Below, one piece after another: positions 2,019 through 13,794 of a stretch of 56,759 nt of DNA. The translations under genes were made by a program, and so were the position numbers. The stretch spans positions 1 to 56,759 of the forward strand of contig CAVYBU010000018.1 of assembly GCA_963766735.1 (NCBI GenBank), in the 5' to 3' direction. This stretch comes from an uncultured Chloroflexia bacterium (lineage in GTDB: Bacteria > Chloroflexota > Limnocylindria > Limnocylindrales > CSP1-4). The notes beneath the pieces are model-generated. The model searched no databases, had not been told where the DNA came from, and saw nothing but the letters and a program-made list of their open reading frames with translations. Numbering within the stretch: position 1 is the stretch's first letter; each line of letters starts with the position of its first letter.

Positions 2019-3483
2019 GTGGCGCCAGGGACGAAGACCGGCGAGGTTGATCGGCATGGCCAGGACATGGAGGCGCTCTACCAGGCGAGGTTGCGGCGGT
2101 ACGTCACTGCCCTCAACAACCGCAAGCCGGACCGCGTGCCGATCCGGCCGCTCGCGGCCGAGTTCACGGGCCGCCACGCGGGCTACACCTGCCAGCAGCT
2201 GACGCAGCACTATCCCGACGCCTTCGAGGCGATGATCCAGTGCAGCAGGGACTACGACTGGGACGCCGTCCCCGCGAGCATGGTCTACGTCTGGACGGGC
2301 ATCACGGATGCGGCAACGGTCACGTACTACGGCGTGCCGGGCGTGGACGTGCCACCGGACGCCGGCTTCCAGTATCGCGAGCCACCCGAGGACGCCTCGT
2401 TCATGCGCGAGGACGAGTACGACCGGCTGATCGACGATCCCGTCGCCTTCCTGTACGAGGTCTGGCTGCCCCGTGCAACCCGCAGCATCGCTGCGGCCGG
2501 CGAGCCCGTGACCTTCCGCCACAACGTGGCCCTGGTGTCGGCCGCGATGGCCATGACCGAGTACTTCAACGCCTTCGGACCGCATACCGACGCGGCTGCG
2601 CACCGAGGCGGCATGCCCGGCGCGATCGCCGGGATCTTCAAGGCCCCGTTCGACATCCTGGCCGACAAGCTGCGCGGCTACATCGGGCTGACGATGGACA
2701 TGCAGACGCAGCCGGACAAGGTGCTCAAGGCGTGCGAGGCCCTGATGCCCCACCTCTACTGGGTGGCGGCCATCGACGGCCGATCCCGCCTCACAGCTGC
2801 CGATCGGCTACTGGATGCACCGCGGCTGCGTGCCCTTCGTCCGGCCCGACCAGTTCGCCTCGCACTACTGGCCGACGGTGAAGCCGCTGATCGAGGAGCT
2901 GTGGCGAAACGGCCACCAGACGATGTTCTACGCCGAGGGCAACTGGGACGCGCACCTCGACGCGTTCCGCGAGCTGCCGGAGCGCAGCATCGTCTACCAC
3001 ATCGACCGCGGCAACCCGCTGCTGACGCATCTCAAGCTGCACGACAAGTTCGCGCTGAGCGGCGGCATCAGCAATGTGACGCTGGCCTTCGGCACACCCG
3101 AGCAGGTGCGCACCGAGGTGAGGACGCTGATCGAGACGGTGGGCCGGGACGGCGGCTTCATCATGGACGCCAGCGCGATCATGATGAACGACACGACACC
3201 CGAGAACATGCGGGCGATGGTCGAGGCGACGCGCGAGTTCGGTGACTACGCCGCGCCGGACATCCTGCCCGAACCGCTGCGCGTTGCCCCGGGATCGATC
3301 GAGGAGACGGCGGGACCGCGCGCGATCACCGGACGTCAGCCGGGTGTGACGGTCCCGTGGGACGAGCACAGGGCGGAGCTGACGGGGCCGATCCAGGGCA
3401 GCGAGGAGCTGGCCAAGCGCGTCTGGGAGGCGGCGGACGCCAACGGCGCGATGTTCATCTGGCAGATGCTGCTGTCGTTCTGA
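2019..3483 (+). CDS. uroporphyrinogen decarboxylase/MtaA-like TIM-barrel protein, frameshifted near 2771
   Basis: KPDRVP N-terminus, PFDILADKLRG, LSGGI...FGTPEQVR...GRDGGFI; removing one base near 2771 joins ORFs 2019 and 2815 (YWVAASTADPASQLPIGYWMHRG); start could be ATG 2067. Confidence 0.8.
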
Positions 3484-4495: not shown

Positions 4496-5044
4496 CTACG
4501 GCCGGAGCCACCAACGGCGCTCGCGAACGTGCTCGCCGCCCAGCTCCTCGTCCACGTCCTCCTCGGGCGCAAAACCGCGGGCCGCGTAGAACGTCTCCCC
4601 GGCCGTGTTGCCCACCAGCACGTCTGCCGCGATCGGCATGCCCGGATGCGCGTCCAGGATCGCGTCAAGAAGCGCCGATCCAAGCCCCGCTCCCCGGAGC
4701 TCCGGGTCAGCGTAGAGCGCCACCAGCGTCACGCGTTCGGGCTCGATCGCGCTCTCCGCGAAGGCGGCCACCACGTCGCCCAGCATCGCCACCCACGTCT
4801 CGTGGCGCTCGATGCGGAGGCCCACGCGGTCCTCCGAGTAGGCGCGCTCGAGGAACCAGTCGATGGTCTCGGGGCGGAGAAGGTCGCGGTAGGTGTCACG
4901 CCACGCCGCGTGAGCGATCGCCCGGACGGCCGGGGCGTGGGACGGGGTGGCACGGCGCACGGCGATCCGGAGTTCGGCCACGTGATCGGACGGGGACGAG
5001 CGGTCGGGCTCGGGAAGGCTGTCGGTTCCGACGGGGACGGTCAC
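4496..5044 (-). CDS. GNAT N-acetyltransferase
   Basis: VRRATP...AWRDTY, LYADPELRGAGLGSALL, N...FYAARGF. Confidence 0.9.
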   Translation of the reverse strand: MTVPVGTDSLPEPDRSSPSDHVAELRIAVRRATPSHAPAVRAIAHAAWRDTYRDLLRPETIDWFLERAYSEDRVGLRIERHETWVAMLGDVVAAFAESAIEPERVTLVALYADPELRGAGLGSALLDAILDAHPGMPIAADVLVGNTAGETFYAARGFAPEEDVDEELGGEHVRERRWWLRP

Positions 5045-5058
5045 GCGCGGAGTGTACT

Positions 5059-5080
5059 AAGGCATCTTCAAGGCATCTTC
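5059..5080. repeat. perfect 11-bp tandem direct repeat next to the GNAT -10 box
   Basis: AAGGCATCTTC twice (5059-5069, 5070-5080). Confidence 0.7.
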
Positions 5081-5123
5081 CCGTCGACGCTACCAACGCG
5101 GACGCGTGCGGGCCTCGGCGTCC

Positions 5124-5621
5124 TCAATCGAGACACCGGAGGACCGAGCAGTCCGGTGCGCGGTCGGACAGCCAGAGCTCGTACAGCTGCTCGAAACCGT
5201 CGAATGCGTCCATGACCGGTTCGCCGTAGTAGTGCTCGCAGGTCGCATGGCCAATCGTGGACTCGCAGTGCTCGTGCGTCGCGACGTCGTACAGGCGCAC
5301 GAAGGCGGCCGTATCGTGTCGGTGGAAGGCGCGTCGATACCCGAGCTCGTGGTGCCGCAACTCGTACCGGTAGTCGATGCGTTCCCATCGGCCCCGGCCG
5401 GCCGGGCTCCAGCGCTCGAAAAGGTCGAGGACCACATCGCCGGTTCGAGGCGGCACAGGGAGGCGGGCCTCGAGGTCGATGACCAGGTTGCCGGTCGCCT
5501 CCCGGCCCATGTTGATCTGGTCACCGTCGTCCGGCGGCAGCACCGTGACCGCGTAGCGCTCGAGCCTCTCGACCAGGTCGGCGAGGTAGCGGAGCAGGTC
5601 GTCCGTTGAGGCGGCCGTCAC
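5124..5621 (-). CDS. hypothetical His/Cys-rich protein, candidate toxin (DUF6516-like by eye)
   Basis: 165 aa; GTG overlaps the upstream TGA (GTGA); pattern LDLFERW...YRYEL...RAFHRHD...THEHC. Confidence 0.7.
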   Translation of the reverse strand: MTAASTDDLLRYLADLVERLERYAVTVLPPDDGDQINMGREATGNLVIDLEARLPVPPRTGDVVLDLFERWSPAGRGRWERIDYRYELRHHELGYRRAFHRHDTAAFVRLYDVATHEHCESTIGHATCEHYYGEPVMDAFDGFEQLYELWLSDRAPDCSVLRCLD

Positions 5622-5884
5622 CGCCGGACGATCTCGCGCTGGGAGGGAAGCCCTTCGTCTGCGCCAACAACCACCTCGCGTCGGGCGGGCCCGATCGTGA
5701 CGCGCCGGCGCCTCGGACGGAACCCCTCTCGCCAGAGATCGAACGCTGCGATGGGGATCCGCGTGATCCGGGGCGACACCCGCAGGGCCGGCAGATCACC
5801 GCGATTGACCAGGTCGAGCACGGCGTCATCACTGATTCCCAGGATCTCGGCGACTTCCTTCGGCGTGTGGTACAGCCTTGCCAC
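5618..5884 (-). CDS. excisionase-like HTH_17 DNA-binding protein, candidate antitoxin
   Basis: MARLYHTPKEVAEILGISDDAVLDLVNRGDLPALRV...RIP; GAGG SD before GTG 5884; it is the real 3' end of the listed 620-aa ORF. Confidence 0.85.
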   Translation of the reverse strand: MARLYHTPKEVAEILGISDDAVLDLVNRGDLPALRVSPRITRIPIAAFDLWREGFRPRRRRVTIGPARREVVVGADEGLPSQREIVRR

Positions 5885-5901
5885 GTCATATGCCTCTATA
5901 T

Positions 5902-5940
5902 CGGTATCTTGCACGATACCGCTCAGACCGCTGTTGTCAA
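5902..5940 (-). promoter_or_regulatory. promoter with a palindromic operator overlapping the -10 box
   Basis: minus-strand TTGACA (5940-5935)-N16-TATCGT; perfect inverted repeat CGGTATC-N6-GATACCG (5902-5921). Confidence 0.7.
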
Positions 5941-6253
5941 CCCGGCGACGTCCCCGCCCTCCGCGCGCGGGCGGCCCTCGATCGAGCACGATGCGACATC
6001 GTCCATGGCGTCCGGCGGCGCCCTCGACGACAAGTCTGCGACTCGACGCTTGCCGGCCACTCACCCCGACAGCATCAGGCCAGACCCGGCCGGTGAAATA
6101 CCAGTACCCCGGAGGCCACCAGCCCCCTCCTGTCCACAGTTCCGGTGCGCTCCGGCACCAGAGAGGCGGCGCCGGAAGTCCCGTCCCACGTCGCTCCTCC
6201 CCCGACCCCCGTGACACACAAGCTGGCACGCCCCGCCCGTACGATGACCCGCG

Positions 6254-9200
6254 ATGCAGTTGATCGACGGGCGACCCGTCTTCGCCGCGACGGACCTGGT
6301 GGGCTTTCTGGCCTGCGGGCACCGGCTTGCCCTGGAGCGGGCGGCGATGCACGGCCTGGTCGCGAAGCCGGTCCGGAACGATCCCTCCATCGACCTCATC
6401 GCCAAGCGCGGCCTGGAGCACGAGCGGCGGTACCTGGACGACCTCCGCGTGGAGGGCCGGACGGTGGTGGAGATCGCGAAGGACGGCTCGGAGGTCGCTC
6501 CCCCCGGCGCCCCCGAAGCCGAGCCGGTCCCGTGGGACCCTGGCAGGGACCTGCGGGCCGCGGCGGCCGAGACCCTCCAGGCGATGCAGGGCGGCGCGGA
6601 CGTCATCTACCAGGCCACCTTCTTCGACGGGACCTGGCGCGGCCACGCGGACTTCCTGCTCCGCCGGGACCATGAGCCGGGCGAGGTCGACAGCGCCTTC
6701 GGGCCGTGGCACTACGAGGTGGCGGACACCAAGCTCGCGCGGCACGTCAAGGCCTCGGCCATCCTCCAGATCTGCTCGTACGTGGAGCAGCTGACGGTGA
6801 TCCAGGGCCGGCAGCCGGAGTTCCTGTACGTGGTGCTGGGCGGCAGCGCCCGCCCCACGGACCGCCGCCGCGTGGACGACTTCATGGCCTACTACCGCCG
6901 GGTGAAACGGGAGTTCGAGCAGGAGGTGGGCATCCGCGGCGACGGCGGCGCCGAGGTGGTCTACCCGCCGGCCGATAGCTACCCGGAGCCCGTGGAGCAC
7001 TGCGCGGTCTGCCGCTGGAGCCCACAGTGCCGCGCTCGGCGCCGGGCGGACGACGACCTGAGCCTGGTCGCGGGCGCCGCGTCCCGCCAGCGCAGCGCGC
7101 TCAAGGCCCGGGGCGTCGGGACCCGTCGTGGCCTCGCCGGCCTGGAGCTGCCGATGGCGCCCGCCCTCGAGAACGTGGGCAAGGAGGCCCTGACGCGCGT
7201 CCGCGAGCAGGCACGGATCCAGGCGCAATCGGAGGATGCCGGCCGGATCCTGTGGGAGCTGCTGCCGCTTGACCGCGGCGAGGACGGTGAGCCGATCCCG
7301 CTCCGCGGGTTCCTGGGCCTGCCCGAGCCCAGCGAGGGGGACCTGTTCCTGGACCTCGAGGGGGACCCGTTCGCGCTGGACGACGGGGTGGACTACCTGT
7401 TCGGGCTCCTGGAGCCGCGCCTGCCCGAGGACGACGCGCGCTGGGCGGATCCGTCCGGCGCGCCCACTCCCAGGTTCCACGCGATCTGGAGCCTGGACGG
7501 CGATGGCCGGGTCACCTGGGCGTCAGAGAAGGCCGCGTTCGAGGCGACCGTGGACCTGATCATGGACCGCTGGGCGCGTGACCCGGACATGCACGTCTAC
7601 CACTACGCCGCGTACGAGCGAACCGCGCTCGGGCGCCTGGCCCAGCGCCACGGCACCCGCGAGGAAGAGGTGGACCGCCTGCTCCGCGGCGAGGTGCTGG
7701 TGGACCTGTACCGCGTCGTGCGCCAGGGCCTGCGCGCGGGCGTGGAGAGCTACTCCATCAAGAGGATCGAGCCGCTCTATGCGCTCACCCGGGAGCAGGA
7801 CCTGAAGGACGCCGGCAGCAGCATCGTCGCGTTCGAGGAGTGGCTGGAGCTTGGCGCGGACACGCCGGTCGAGGACGCGGCGAAGATCCTGGACGGGATC
7901 GCCGCCTACAACCGGGACGACGTGGTGAGCAACTGGCGCCTCCGGGACTGGCTGGAGGAACGACGCCGGGACCTGGAGGAGCGCGAGGGCCGGACGCTTC
8001 CCCGCCCGACCGTGGATGACGGAGCGGCCTCGCAGGAGCTCACGGAGCGCGAGCAGCGCGTGGCCGAGCTGATGGAGCGCCTGACCGAAGGCGCCCCCGC
8101 GGATCCCTCGGATCGGGCGAAGGACCCGGACGCCGCGGGCCGCTGGCTCCTCGCCCAGCTGCTGGCCTGGCACCGCCGCGAGGACAAGTCGGCCTGGTGG
8201 CGCTTCTTCGAGCTGCTGCGCATGACCGACGAGGAGCTGCTCGAGGAGCGCGAACCCCTCGCCGGACTCGTCCCCATCGGCGAGCCGCGCGTCGAGAAGA
8301 AGTCTCTCGTCTACACGTTCTCGTTCCCGCCGCAGGACCACCGCGTGGACGTGGACAGCGACGTCGCGGATCCGGTCACGCGCGAGGGCGCGGGTGCCGT
8401 GGTTTCCGTGGACGAGGTGAACCGCCGGATCGAGATCAAGCGCGGTCCGAAGCTTGCCGGGACGCCGCTGCCGACCGCGCTGGTGCCCAACGGCGTGATC
8501 CCCACGACAGAGCTGGCGGAGAGCCTGCTGCGCACGGGCGAGCTGGTGGCGGAGAGCGGCCTGTCCGGCGGCTCTGCGCCGCCCGGGGTCCCGGACCTGG
8601 GTGCCGCTCGGGCGCTGCTGCTGCGAACGCCCCCGGGCGACGTCCCGGATGACGCCCTGGTCAGACCCGGCGAGGCGCCGCTCGCCGCCGCAGTCCGCCT
8701 CGCGCCGGACCTTGCGGGCCGGGTCCTCCCGATCCAGGGCCCGCCAGGCTCGGGCAAGACGTACACCGGCGCGCACATGATCGTGCGCCTGGCGATGGCC
8801 GGACAGCGGGTCGGGGTGGTCGCCAACAGCCACAAGGTCATCGGCAACCTGCTTCGCATGGTGGACGATGTCGCCCGCGCGCAGCTGAAGAGCGGCGAGA
8901 TCTCGCGCCTCCCGCGCATCGGCCAGAAGCCGAAGACGAACCAGCAGCCGACGTTCGCGGGCGCGGCGCCGCTCCCGGACAACGCCGCCGTCGCCCAGGC
9001 CCTCCACTCGGGCAGCTGCGAGGTCGTAGGCGCGGTCGCCTGGACCTGGTGCCGGTCCGAGATGGCCCTCCCTGAGCCCGTCCTGGACGTGCTGTTCGTG
9101 GACGAGGCCGGCCAGCTGAGCCTGGCCAACGTGCTCGCGTGTGCGCCGGCCGCCCGTGCGATCGTCCTGCTCGGCGACCCGCAGCAGCTGGACCAGCCCA

Positions 9201-9946
9201 CCCAGGGCAGCCATCCGCCGGGGGCCGAGCGGAGCGCGCTCGGCCACATCCTGGGCGACCGGGCCACGATCGAGCCGTCCGAGGGCCTGTTCCTGGGCGA
9301 GACGTGGCGGCTCCACCCGGACATCTGCGACTTCACCTCGGCCGCGTTCTACGAGGACCGGCTCCGGCCGGTCCCGGGGCTGGAGCGGCAGCGCGTCGAC
9401 CCGTCCGCACGGGGCGACGCCGGGGCCCCGCTCGGCGGGACGGGAATGCGGCACGTCCCCGTCGAGCATGAGGGCAACGCCACGGAATCGGTCGAGGAGG
9501 CGGCGGTCGTGGTGGACCTGGTCCGGGAGCTGCTGGACGGGGGCGCGACGTGGACGGACCGCCACGGGGACGAGCGACCGATGACGCTCCATGACATCGT
9601 CATCGTCGCCCCATACAACGCGCACGTCGCTGCCATCGAGAAGGCGTTCGCCGCCGCCGGCATGCGGGACCCGTTCGTCGGGACCGTGGACAAGTTCCAG
9701 GGCCAGGAGCGCCCGGTCAGCATCTACGCGATGGGCACCTCCTCGCCCGAGGACGCGCCGCGGGGCATCGAGTTCCTGTACTCGCTCAACCGCCTCAACG
9801 TGGCCACATCGCGGGCCCGTTGCGTCACGGCGGTGGTCTGCTCGCCCGCCCTGCTGCGGGTCGGCTGCCGGACGCCCCGCCAGATGCAGCTGGCGAACGG
9901 CCTGTGCCTGGCGGTCGAGGCGGCGGAGGCAGCGGGGAGGGCCTGA
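6254..9946 (+). CDS. TM0106-family RecB/Cas4-like nuclease + RNase H-like domain + SF1 helicase
   Basis: FLACGH and HCAVCRWSPQC Cys cluster; GHADFL...EVADTK nuclease; LFLDLEGDP...YHYAAYE...YNRDD; QGPPGSGKT, VDEAGQ, GDPQQL, TVDKFQGQE, NRLNVATSRA. Confidence 0.92.
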   Translation: MQLIDGRPVFAATDLVGFLACGHRLALERAAMHGLVAKPVRNDPSIDLIAKRGLEHERRYLDDLRVEGRTVVEIAKDGSEVAPPGAPEAEPVPWDPGRDLRAAAAETLQAMQGGADVIYQATFFDGTWRGHADFLLRRDHEPGEVDSAFGPWHYEVADTKLARHVKASAILQICSYVEQLTVIQGRQPEFLYVVLGGSARPTDRRRVDDFMAYYRRVKREFEQEVGIRGDGGAEVVYPPADSYPEPVEHCAVCRWSPQCRARRRADDDLSLVAGAASRQRSALKARGVGTRRGLAGLELPMAPALENVGKEALTRVREQARIQAQSEDAGRILWELLPLDRGEDGEPIPLRGFLGLPEPSEGDLFLDLEGDPFALDDGVDYLFGLLEPRLPEDDARWADPSGAPTPRFHAIWSLDGDGRVTWASEKAAFEATVDLIMDRWARDPDMHVYHYAAYERTALGRLAQRHGTREEEVDRLLRGEVLVDLYRVVRQGLRAGVESYSIKRIEPLYALTREQDLKDAGSSIVAFEEWLELGADTPVEDAAKILDGIAAYNRDDVVSNWRLRDWLEERRRDLEEREGRTLPRPTVDDGAASQELTEREQRVAELMERLTEGAPADPSDRAKDPDAAGRWLLAQLLAWHRREDKSAWWRFFELLRMTDEELLEEREPLAGLVPIGEPRVEKKSLVYTFSFPPQDHRVDVDSDVADPVTREGAGAVVSVDEVNRRIEIKRGPKLAGTPLPTALVPNGVIPTTELAESLLRTGELVAESGLSGGSAPPGVPDLGAARALLLRTPPGDVPDDALVRPGEAPLAAAVRLAPDLAGRVLPIQGPPGSGKTYTGAHMIVRLAMAGQRVGVVANSHKVIGNLLRMVDDVARAQLKSGEISRLPRIGQKPKTNQQPTFAGAAPLPDNAAVAQALHSGSCEVVGAVAWTWCRSEMALPEPVLDVLFVDEAGQLSLANVLACAPAARAIVLLGDPQQLDQPTQGSHPPGAERSALGHILGDRATIEPSEGLFLGETWRLHPDICDFTSAAFYEDRLRPVPGLERQRVDPSARGDAGAPLGGTGMRHVPVEHEGNATESVEEAAVVVDLVRELLDGGATWTDRHGDERPMTLHDIVIVAPYNAHVAAIEKAFAAAGMRDPFVGTVDKFQGQERPVSIYAMGTSSPEDAPRGIEFLYSLNRLNVATSRARCVTAVVCSPALLRVGCRTPRQMQLANGLCLAVEAAEAAGRA

Positions 9947-11321: not shown

Positions 11322-11937
11322 ATGGCAGATCGCAGGCGTGGGATCCCGACCCCGCTGACGACCTCGGAGGTCGACCCACTGACGTGGGACCCGGACACGG
11401 TCTCAGGGTCGCACCATGACGCCGTCCTGTTTGCAGAGGTGGACTTCGCGGAGATCGAGGTCAAGGGCGCGTCGTTCAACGACTGCACCTTCCGCGGCAT
11501 CCGGTTCAACGCCTCGACCCACGAGGATGCCGCCTTCACGAACTGCACGTTCGTGGGCTGCAGCTTCTTCGACGTCAGCCTCACCCGGTGCAAGCTCGTC
11601 GGCAGCGTGTTCGACCGGTGCACGTTCGACCTGATGAGGGTCGAGGGCGGCGACTGGTCGCTGGTCGGCCTGCCGGGGGCGGACCTGCGCAGGGCCACGT
11701 TCCGGGGCGTCCGGCTGCGCGAGGCGGACCTCAGCGGAGTTCAGTTCGACGGGGCGTCCGTCAGGGATACGGACCTGTCGGGGACCCTGATGCGCGGGGC
11801 GTCGTTCCGAGGGCACGGACCTGCGGGGCAGCGACCTGTCGTCGCTCGACGTGCTGCAGAACGACGTCAGGGATGCCCTCATCGACGTCGAGCAGGCGAT
11901 GGTGCTCGTGACGACGATGGGCCTGCGGATCGGCTAG
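11322..11937 (+). CDS. pentapeptide repeat protein (MfpA/Qnr-like fold), frameshift near 11808
   Basis: ASFNDCTFRG/ADLRRATFRG repeats; corrected tail ASFEGTDLRGSDLSSLD...MGLRIG*. Confidence 0.85.
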
Positions 11938-12470
11938 GAACCGGTCTCGCCGGCCCTTCGCGCTGGCTCGCCGGCCCTTCGCGCGCTTGGGTCGAGGCGC
12001 CAGATGCGCTCGCCGTCCTCGACCTCATCGGTCGCCACCAGGCCGGCCCGCTCGGCGACCCGCGCCGAGGCGACGTGGTCGGGGTGGACGTGGGCGGTGA
12101 TCGTGGTCAGGCCGTGCGTCCCCAGCCACGCGACGATTGCCCGCGCAGCCTCCGTCGCGAACCCGCGACCCTGCCACGGCAGGCCGATGACCCAGGCGAT
12201 GTCCGCATCGTCGCCGCCACCCGTGATCGTGGACTGGACGAACCCCACCGCCTCGTCCGGATCGTGCGTGCGAACGATCCAGTTGCGCCACGCTTCCCGG
12301 CCGTCCGGCGACCATCCGATAGCCTGGCGCCGGTACCGGTCTCGAAGGTCATTGACCGACGGCGGACAACCCCCCGTGAAGGTGTACAGCCCCGGATCGC
12401 CAAGCACGTGGACCATCTCGGCGGCGTCCTTGATCCGCAACGGAACGAGGCGCAGGCGGGCGGTGGCCAG
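11934..12470 (-). CDS. RimJ/RimL-type GNAT acetyltransferase (start uncertain: CTG 12470 or TTG 12440)
   Basis: LATARLRLVPL, WQGRGFATEAA, HPDHVASARVAERAG; GGAGG 7 nt before CTG 12470. Confidence 0.8.
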   Translation of the reverse strand: MATARLRLVPLRIKDAAEMVHVLGDPGLYTFTGGCPPSVNDLRDRYRRQAIGWSPDGREAWRNWIVRTHDPDEAVGFVQSTITGGGDDADIAWVIGLPWQGRGFATEAARAIVAWLGTHGLTTITAHVHPDHVASARVAERAGLVATDEVEDGERIWRLDPSARRAGEPARRAGETGS

Positions 12471-12507
12471 GACCTCGCCTCCCGGGGCAGCGCCGCCTCG
12501 CGAGCGC

Positions 12508-13794
12508 TCAGGCGTGACCCGCCCCCAGCTCCTCCGCGACCCAGGCGGCCAGCACCCGGGCGCAGGCCTCCACCTCGGCCAGCGGCACGGACTCGTTGGC
12601 GCCGTGGGCCAGCCGCACGTCGCCCGGCCCGAAGATCACGCACGGCGTGTCGCCCTCGTTGACGAACAGCCGCATGTCCGCGCCGTACGGCACGCCGAGC
12701 GCCTGTGGGCGACGCCCCGTGACGGCCTTGATCGTGGCGATCAACCCGGCCGGCAGGGGATGATCGGCGGCGACACGAGCCGAGCCGAACCGGCCCCCGG
12801 TGATCTCGACGGTGGCCGGGTTGGCGGCGAGGAACGAGTCATCGGCACAGGCCGCCCGGATGCACGCGCGGAGCTCGTCGGCCGCCGCCTCCGGCGTCTG
12901 ACCCAGACGCACGCCGTACCGCCCCTCCGCCACCACGCGATCCATCACCGAGGACGCCCACTCCCCGCCCGCCACCTTGCCGACGATCGTCGGGTAGGGC
13001 AGGCCCAGCGCCGTCATCAACGGCTCGGTCTCATCGTGGTTCCGGCGCGTCTCGTCGGCCGCGAGCGCCCGCACGAGCGTCTGCAGGTTGTCGAGCGCGG
13101 ACACACCCTCCGTACGCCGGCTGGCGTGCGCGGCCCTGCCCGGGACCGTGAGCCGGAACGTGATCGCGCCCGCATGGGCGACGACGACGTCCAGCGAGGA
13201 CGGCTCCGGAATGACGCACAGGTCCCCGGTGACGCCGGCCCGGATCGCGGCGAGGGTCCCCTGGCCGCCGTCCTCCTCGCTGGGCACGAGGGCCACGATC
13301 AGCTCGCCCTTGAGCGAGTCCAGCGCCCCTGTGACCTGGAGCGCCCGAACCGCGCCGAAGATGGCCGCGATCCCGCCCTTCATGTCGCAGGAGCCGCGCC
13401 CGTACAGGCGGCCCTCCCGGATCTCACCGCCGAACGCATCACCGATCCAGGTCGCGGGATCGCCGATCGGGACGACGTCGACGTGGCCCGACAGCACGAG
13501 GCGGAAGGCCCCGGGCCGGCCCGCCCGCCCGATCACGATCGGGAGCTCGGTCCGCGCGACCTCCTCGCCCGGCCAATGCGGGTCCTGGCGGATCGCCGCC
13601 GGGTCGGGATGGAAGATCTCGACCGTCATCCCGAGCGCCTCGAGCCAGTCTGCGAGGCTGGCCTGGATCGCAGCCTCGTCACCGGTCACAGATCGCATCC
13701 GGACAAGCTCGGTGAGGTCGGCGGCGACCAGGTGCGCGTTGACGGCGTCGGCCGCGGCCTTCGCGGCAGCCGAGAGGCGGGGTCGCGGGGTCAT
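12508..13794 (-). CDS. ArgE/DapE-family M20 deacylase
   Basis: SGHVDVVP, GRGSCDMKGG, EEDGG, IPEP, FGPG...AHGANE. Confidence 0.9.
   Translation of the reverse strand: MTPRPRLSAAAKAAADAVNAHLVAADLTELVRMRSVTGDEAAIQASLADWLEALGMTVEIFHPDPAAIRQDPHWPGEEVARTELPIVIGRAGRPGAFRLVLSGHVDVVPIGDPATWIGDAFGGEIREGRLYGRGSCDMKGGIAAIFGAVRALQVTGALDSLKGELIVALVPSEEDGGQGTLAAIRAGVTGDLCVIPEPSSLDVVVAHAGAITFRLTVPGRAAHASRRTEGVSALDNLQTLVRALAADETRRNHDETEPLMTALGLPYPTIVGKVAGGEWASSVMDRVVAEGRYGVRLGQTPEAAADELRACIRAACADDSFLAANPATVEITGGRFGSARVAADHPLPAGLIATIKAVTGRRPQALGVPYGADMRLFVNEGDTPCVIFGPGDVRLAHGANESVPLAEVEACARVLAAWVAEELGAGHA

Follow-up and report, generated by a model that had tools for sequence, protein, structure and literature searches.

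Between positions 5,124 and 5,940 of the window (the whole stretch of 56,759 nucleotides analyzed here, from an uncultured Chloroflexia bacterium), the minus strand carries a cassette of two small coupled genes behind one promoter, with the DNA-binding gene first. This cassette is real, conserved, and accessory. Judging from sequence comparisons and a structure model, we consider it likely to be a type II toxin-antitoxin (TA) module, in which a divergent toxin of the TumE superfamily would be held in check by an excisionase-like antitoxin. Its features are as follows.

5045..6253, no strand: variable slot holding the cassette, with approximate ends, flanked by a GNAT gene on one side and by the TM0106 helicase-nuclease gene on the other (from congener comparison and loose contig ends in run X2)
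5124..5621, minus strand: gene for the 165-aa His/Cys partner, a predicted divergent TumE-fold toxin (homologues, model, invariant His core, TumE links)
5618..5884, minus strand: gene for the 88-aa excisionase/BldC-type HTH_17 protein, predicted antitoxin and repressor (PF12728, TIGR01764, PDB relatives 4j2n and 6ama, conservation)
5893..5897, minus strand: Shine-Dalgarno-like AGAGG, 8 nt ahead of the GTG start; a GAGG-like signal recurs in relatives
5902..5921, no strand: candidate operator dyad, which overlaps the -10 box and the probable transcription start
5913..5918, minus strand: -10 box TATCGT (T, A, and T in 33/33 close loci, last T in 32/33; positions 4 and 5 variable)
5928..5931, minus strand: putative third half-site of the operator, GCGG, within the promoter spacer, placed as a direct repeat 9 bp ahead of the left arm
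5935..5940, minus strand: -35 box TTGACA (T31, T32, G33, A30, and C33 of 33 close loci)

Two coupled coding genes and an excisionase-like first product

A previous sequence-only reading had described the 88-aa HTH_17 gene as hidden at the end of a spurious 620-aa open reading frame (ORF). The Pfam match and the antisense shadow agree with this description, as the HTH_17 gene forms the tail of that ORF and the upstream part of the ORF is antisense to the TM0106 helicase-nuclease gene. The partner start overlaps the HTH_17 stop by GTGA, and the coupling to a 165-aa protein that had been read there is present in the sequence. Comparison with seven relatives gave differences of 82/76/262 over the three codon positions for the HTH_17 gene and 242/233/458 for the partner gene, both of which are coding patterns. 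One metatranscriptome contig of 218 nt, 99% identical, covers the gene junction (5556-5771), and a 20-kb control stretch gave short pieces only, among the matches listed, in the same expression look-up; as this is one contig from one study, we do not count it as evidence.

The 88-aa protein matches PF12728 (HTH_17) with an E value of 2.2e-9 and 37.9 bits against a cut-off of 27, as well as TIGR01764 (31.5 bits against a cut-off of 28.8), and shows faint Pfam matches to YdaS_toxin (E, 0.03) and Phage_Cox (E, 0.26). The sequence-related PDB structures for its HTH head are 6ama and 4j2n, which we take to be BldC/Xis-type proteins. The protein is basic (pI 11.2). For the basic and probably flexible tail assigned to it earlier, “flexible” undersells a conserved segment: P57, R59, R60, V62, I64, G74, E77, and P80, eight tail residues in total, are kept in at least 90% of 31 close rows. 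Such conservation suggests that the tail probably binds the partner protein. Among the 11 longer or odd homologues inspected, no natural fusion between the HTH_17 protein and the partner was present.

A symmetric operator over the -10 box

The arrangement TTGACA-N16-TATCGT is the sole promoter-like site in positions 4500 to 6500 (one found, compared to 0.1 in shuffled sequences) and is of the σ70 type. The palindrome CGGTATC-N6-GATACCG that had been read over its -10 box was confirmed: the dyad at 5902-5921 has perfect 7-bp arms with 6 nt between them, pairs at 9/10 positions overall, and occurs as an exact pattern only once in the 3.6-Mb genome. The CGG of the left arm directly adjoins a TAT-n-n-T box in all 33 close loci examined, where the -35 box hardly varies. 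With 17 loci excluded for want of a clear promoter, symmetry about the end of the -10 box exceeded that of shuffled sequences (p < 0.05) in 29/33 close loci but in just 7/23 distant loci with a clear promoter, a weak showing that counts against the TA reading. In some loci (e.g., L034) both arms have changed together. What the earlier reading of the operator missed is the third, direct half-site at 5931-5928, whose C is kept in 33/33 and whose last G is kept in 30/33 close loci. From this arrangement we infer that the HTH_17 protein would repress the shared promoter, so that the cassette is probably autoregulated. A role of the palindrome as an RNA hairpin was considered and rejected, because the left arm sits within the -10 box, upstream of the expected transcription start.

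The two genes travel together and decay asymmetrically

A gene neighborhood survey, suggested earlier as a check, supports a strict pairing with HTH_17. A homologue of the HTH_17 gene lies directly upstream of the partner in 35 of 41 close loci; of the six unpaired loci, two start at a contig end, and the other four are 5'-truncated partner fragments. Class-wide, 47 of 49 partner ORFs, down to about 20% identity, are preceded by an HTH_17 gene, with the two unpaired ORFs being one of the truncated fragments of the close set and a locus in which the HTH gene is cut by the contig end (six loci belong to both sets). The two ORFs overlap by 4 nt in 43 of the 64 pairs with both ORFs defined, with 11 further loci lacking a partner ORF by the rule used. 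Pairwise identities of the two proteins correlate with a rho of 0.82 (65 pairs; kin are not independent), as is expected for joint inheritance and not proof of contact.

The cassette is patchily distributed. Of 251 genomes in the window’s class, 43 carry the partner, as do 3 of 8 congeners, and a sample of 301 actinobacterial genomes gave one close member and five weak matches; named records of the partner come mostly from metagenome genomes of Candidatus Limnocylindrales or Chloroflexota. The interpretation given by the sequence-only reading is partly supported: the analysis bears out a two-gene, TA-like architecture with autoregulation, the strict pairing, the missing link to an integrase, and a remote likeness to TumE, while the toxin role of the partner is a prediction. 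Multiple copies also occur: the closest relative has a second, divergent cassette on the opposite strand at a distance of about 1.1 kb (L001:845-1599, minus strand), and genome G149 carries four copies.

A reverse search detected the HTH subfamily in 45 of 251 class genomes, 41 of them in common with the partner. Nine of its HTH matches had not yet been linked to a partner, and these comprised two with a partner (one frameshifted), one with a partner remnant, four without a partner, one with another downstream gene, and one at a contig end. Intact-looking lone HTH genes are found at L176, L178, L181, and L182, whereas all five partner copies that lack an HTH gene and lie away from contig ends are 5'-truncated. 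If the partner is a toxin, lone HTH genes should survive and lone partners should be truncated, as is the case here, albeit with small numbers and in genomes that contain assembly errors. At L179 (689-1375, plus strand), an HTH of the same subfamily precedes an unrelated ORF, nucleotidyltransferase-like by eye and without a Pfam match, in a possible partner swap.

A variable slot with TA-rich surroundings

In the congener G207, the GNAT and TM0106 genes lie 157 bp apart without the cassette; a different small gene occupies the slot in G162, and G354 has neither cassette nor helicase. Contigs from run X2 part from the window at about 4989 and 6209 (loose ends). One neighbor of the slot, a RecB-like nuclease-helicase of the TM0106 family (6254-9946, plus strand), is patchy itself, being found in 3 of 5 congeners with this query, and in G354 the flanking genes are joined directly; hence, the whole region is a variable slot. 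Between the cassette and the GNAT gene, a perfect 11-bp tandem repeat (5059-5080) adjoins a probable GNAT -10 box. Elsewhere in the window, a uroporphyrinogen-decarboxylase-like gene (2019-3483, plus strand) is split over two overlapping frames with Pfam URO-D pieces in both, reflecting a frameshift or an assembly error, and the frame of a pentapeptide-repeat gene (11322-12662, plus strand) turns to nonsense past about 170 aa, which suggests another frameshift.

No third gene is common to the 41 close loci. TA, defense, or insertion sequence neighbors (E ≤ 1e-8) were found at 10 of 40 close loci compared to 0 of 40 random loci (Fisher p, 0.001), based on 117 of 225 cluster representatives for the close loci (picked by hand, mostly the nearest) and on 120 of 156 called genes for the random loci, which were evenly chosen from seven genomes. 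The neighbors include Gp49, DUF5615, DUF2442, and minimal nucleotidyltransferases, which we take to be TA associated. At 11 of 43 distant loci, a PIN, HipA-like, PemK, AbiEii, ParE, or BrnT gene lies no more than about 1.5 kb away, in a survey of 109 of the 123 called genes. One distant subfamily (L095, L097, L100, L101, and L105 to L107), whose upstream repeat differs, is repeatedly found amid group 1 glycosyltransferase genes.

The sequence-only reading had noted that no integrase is nearby to explain an excisionase. Indeed, no tyrosine integrase (PF00589) is encoded on this contig, and none occurs among the 117 neighbors of the 40 close loci; a single one was found among the 43 distant loci (L092). 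A search of viral contigs with one pattern returned no relative, and tRNA genes are present in 5 of 60 loci.

An acidic partner with an invariant histidine core

Among 370 candidates, 262 were partner homologues, and a search of 50%-identity representatives gave 80 matches, one of which is a spurious repeat protein. The partner has no match in Pfam, NCBIfam, PADLOC, or the PDB: any PADLOC family is matched by at most one of 67 members (best E, 0.0015), and the sequence search of the PDB returned no relative of the partner and none of TumE. Its structure model (pLDDT 94) consists of an N-terminal helix, an antiparallel sheet, a C-terminal helix, and a Cys-bearing tail. Foldseek found no fold match for it in the PDB (best E, 0.31), there was none in BFVD (best E, 0.04), and the best PDB neighbor in VIA-align (Z 7.2, rmsd 4.9, 117 residues aligned) is no fold match either; this lack of matches does not show a new fold.

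Three histidines (H100, H102, and H116) are invariant in 67 diverse partner sequences, and E69, Y84, R96, H118, C119, H130, and C158 are kept in at least 90% of them. All motifs and the four cysteines that had been read in the protein (119, 128, 158, and 163) are present, but only two of the four cysteines are family-wide, as C128 and C163 are restricted to closer subfamilies (0 of 23 distant rows). Metal sites are predicted here from conservation and strand alternation. With a pI of 4.9, the partner is acidic (median of its family, 5.3), and TumE is mildly acidic too (median pI, 6.1). An acidic partner with a basic HTH protein is the reverse of many RNase TA pairs and speaks against the TA reading.

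A remote resemblance to TumE

The partner had been called loosely DUF6516/TumE-like by eye. A family-level match was not found: none of 72 and none of 42 partner members match PF20126 (TumE) even at an E value of ≤1, so that the partner is not a member of the TumE family as defined. What stands is a remote resemblance, for which several lines of evidence, weak but concordant and below family thresholds, come from profile links, element order, and structural neighbors. A direct comparison of the partner and TumE by hhalign gave an E value of 4.6e-4 and a probability of 33%; across comparisons these probabilities are low (2 to 33%), and those for a 12-sequence TumE alignment are negligible. A bridging actinobacterial family (L111 to L115) is the best profile match to the partner (hhalign E, 2.4e-5) and also aligns with TumE (E, 2.6e-4), with A-Y-H-W placed on R-Y-D-N and H-x-H on H-x-H. 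In four comparisons, 0, 1, 0, and 0 of 60 block-shuffled controls scored at or above the observed score. When the TumE HMM was run on 7608 ORFs, five true TumE matches came first, and the 14 further matches (best E, 0.03) had 11 members of the partner family and one of the bridging family among them.

At the level of models, the secondary-structure elements of TumE follow the same order as those of the partner, and the highest-ranked PDB neighbor is the same for both models, which have four of their first five and 15 of their first 50 neighbors in common, all with matches at background Z. Atlas clusters with 11% and 29% TumE members were retrieved at 0.92 and 0.90, with recognition scores under the reliable range. 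Of the TumE motif R-Y/W-D-N...H-x-H, the partner has the H-x-H, while R-Y-D-N is replaced by A-F-H-x-H; as its catalytic-looking motif is thus unlike that of TumE, the activity may differ as well. Taken together, the partner is predicted to be a remote TumE homologue with a divergent TumE fold.

Alternative explanations

The cassette might instead encode a harmless metal- or redox-binding protein whose expression is merely controlled by the HTH_17 protein, or which modulates it. We regard such a nontoxic pair of regulator and enzyme or sensor as unlikely. The His/Cys-rich invariant core would suit it, as would the acidity of the partner and a TumE link that stays under threshold; however, no conserved target or pathway gene lies nearby, TA neighbors are enriched, no intact partner without an HTH gene was seen, and the nearest detectable relatives of the partner are a toxin family. 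Operon, operator, decay, and neighborhood would fit equally well if the partner is toxic and the HTH_17 protein counters it through repression or an action on the same target, as in type IV-like TA systems that form no stable complex, and the different, nucleotidyltransferase-looking ORF downstream of the L179 HTH also speaks for this. The possibility appears quite improbable to us: direct contact is suggested by the conserved basic tail that follows the DNA-binding head and by the complementary charge on the partner, and TumE-TumA complexes were modeled with high confidence (PMC10584680).

Could the roles be reversed, with the basic excisionase-like protein as a toxic DNA binder and the acidic partner as its antidote? 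The charge pattern and the faint YdaS_toxin and Phage_Cox matches point in this direction, yet it is the HTH genes that persist intact-looking without a partner (the four lone loci named above), with the reverse not seen, and the enzyme-like invariant residues are found in the partner and not in the HTH_17 protein. We therefore consider a reversal very unlikely. The last alternative, an excisionase and a cargo gene left behind by a prophage or integrative element, draws on the TIGR01764 match, on the one integrase at a distant locus, and on the few loci with tRNA genes. We give it hardly any weight, as it is largely refuted by the lack of integrases on the contig and among the close-locus neighbors, by the lack of viral relatives in a search with one pattern, and by the cassette’s own promoter and operator, which are kept in many unrelated contexts.

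Proposed mechanism and implications

For the type II TA module that we favor, the following mechanism can be proposed. The HTH head would bind GCGGTA half-sites over the -10 box and thereby block the polymerase, whereas the conserved Arg-rich tail would bind the acidic partner, and the HTH_17 protein would neutralize it. In the partner, His100, His102, His116, and His118 together with Glu69, Tyr84, and Arg96 may form the active site, which would probably be metal dependent, while Cys119, Cys158, and His130 probably hold a structural zinc. Once free, the toxin would stop growth, and the example of TumE points to translation as the most likely target. More speculatively, and with considerable doubt, the partner might represent a metalloenzyme branch of the TumE superfamily, with a four-His catalytic metal center and a Cys/His zinc switch, such that the toxin would be gated both by an excisionase-like antitoxin polymerizing on a three-site operator and by the metal or redox state.

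If the TA assignment is true, roughly every sixth genome sampled from an abundant uncultured class carries an uncatalogued TA family, and the TumE superfamily, whose catalytic mechanism is unproven (PMC10584680), gains a variant with invariant His and Cys residues as targets for mutagenesis. The cassette would also make it possible to test cleanly whether “excisionase” genes remote from integrases often encode antitoxins. Should the metalloenzyme version be right, it would expose TumE chemistry, and Xis/BldC-type proteins would join the validated antitoxin classes. As new TA pairings are found regularly, the surprise is moderate.

Comparison with known systems

We found no description of an HTH_17 protein paired with a TumE-like protein in the open literature. 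For TumE-TumA (DUF6516, PF20126), the pairing is absent from the text of PMC10584680 and from its six searchable supplement files, besides which there is one picture-only file. TumE proteins have been validated as toxins that inhibit translation; the antitoxins encoded upstream of them are diverse, and an RNase activity is unproven (PMC10584680). The cassette resembles these systems in being a two-gene operon with the putative toxin downstream and in the diversity of antitoxins that is tolerated, and the models suggest a common plan of two helices on a roughly seven-stranded antiparallel sheet, with the same element order and equivalent Glu, Tyr, and H-x-H positions. Unlike TumE, the partner lacks a Pfam match, has R-A-F-H-x-H in place of R-Y-D-N, and carries an extra invariant Cys pair and a C-terminal CxxL; moreover, its family members are 145 to 165 aa long compared to about 120 to 150 aa in TumE.

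A precedent for the antitoxin side is given by truncated MerR-type HTH proteins, which were predicted to be the antitoxins of PIN toxins (Makarova 2009, PMC2701414). The cassette shares with these pairs an HTH of this type as predicted antitoxin; the toxin there is a PIN nuclease and the extra segment of the antitoxin is N-terminal, in contrast to the non-PIN partner and C-terminal basic tail seen here. The BldC/Xis-type winged-HTH proteins (6ama and 4j2n) have a sequence-related head. BldC binds direct repeats head to tail (PMC5859096), and the direct half-site 9 bp upstream would fit this mode of binding. The cassette differs from them in that its main site is an inverted repeat and in that the HTH protein is coupled to one partner gene, instead of being a global regulator or a recombination factor.

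The bridging family is an unnamed actinobacterial two-gene family without a Pfam match (e.g., L111:1249-1797, plus strand, with the upstream gene ending at 1229). Like the partner, its second gene, which bridges the partner and TumE, is part of a tight pair and has a Y-x-Y...A-F/Y-H-W-H...H-x-H core, but it lacks the Cys pair, and the gene upstream resembles TumE-linked antitoxins by eye instead of HTH_17. It is probably another uncatalogued TA pair of the TumE superfamily; at L111, an integrase adjoins the pair.
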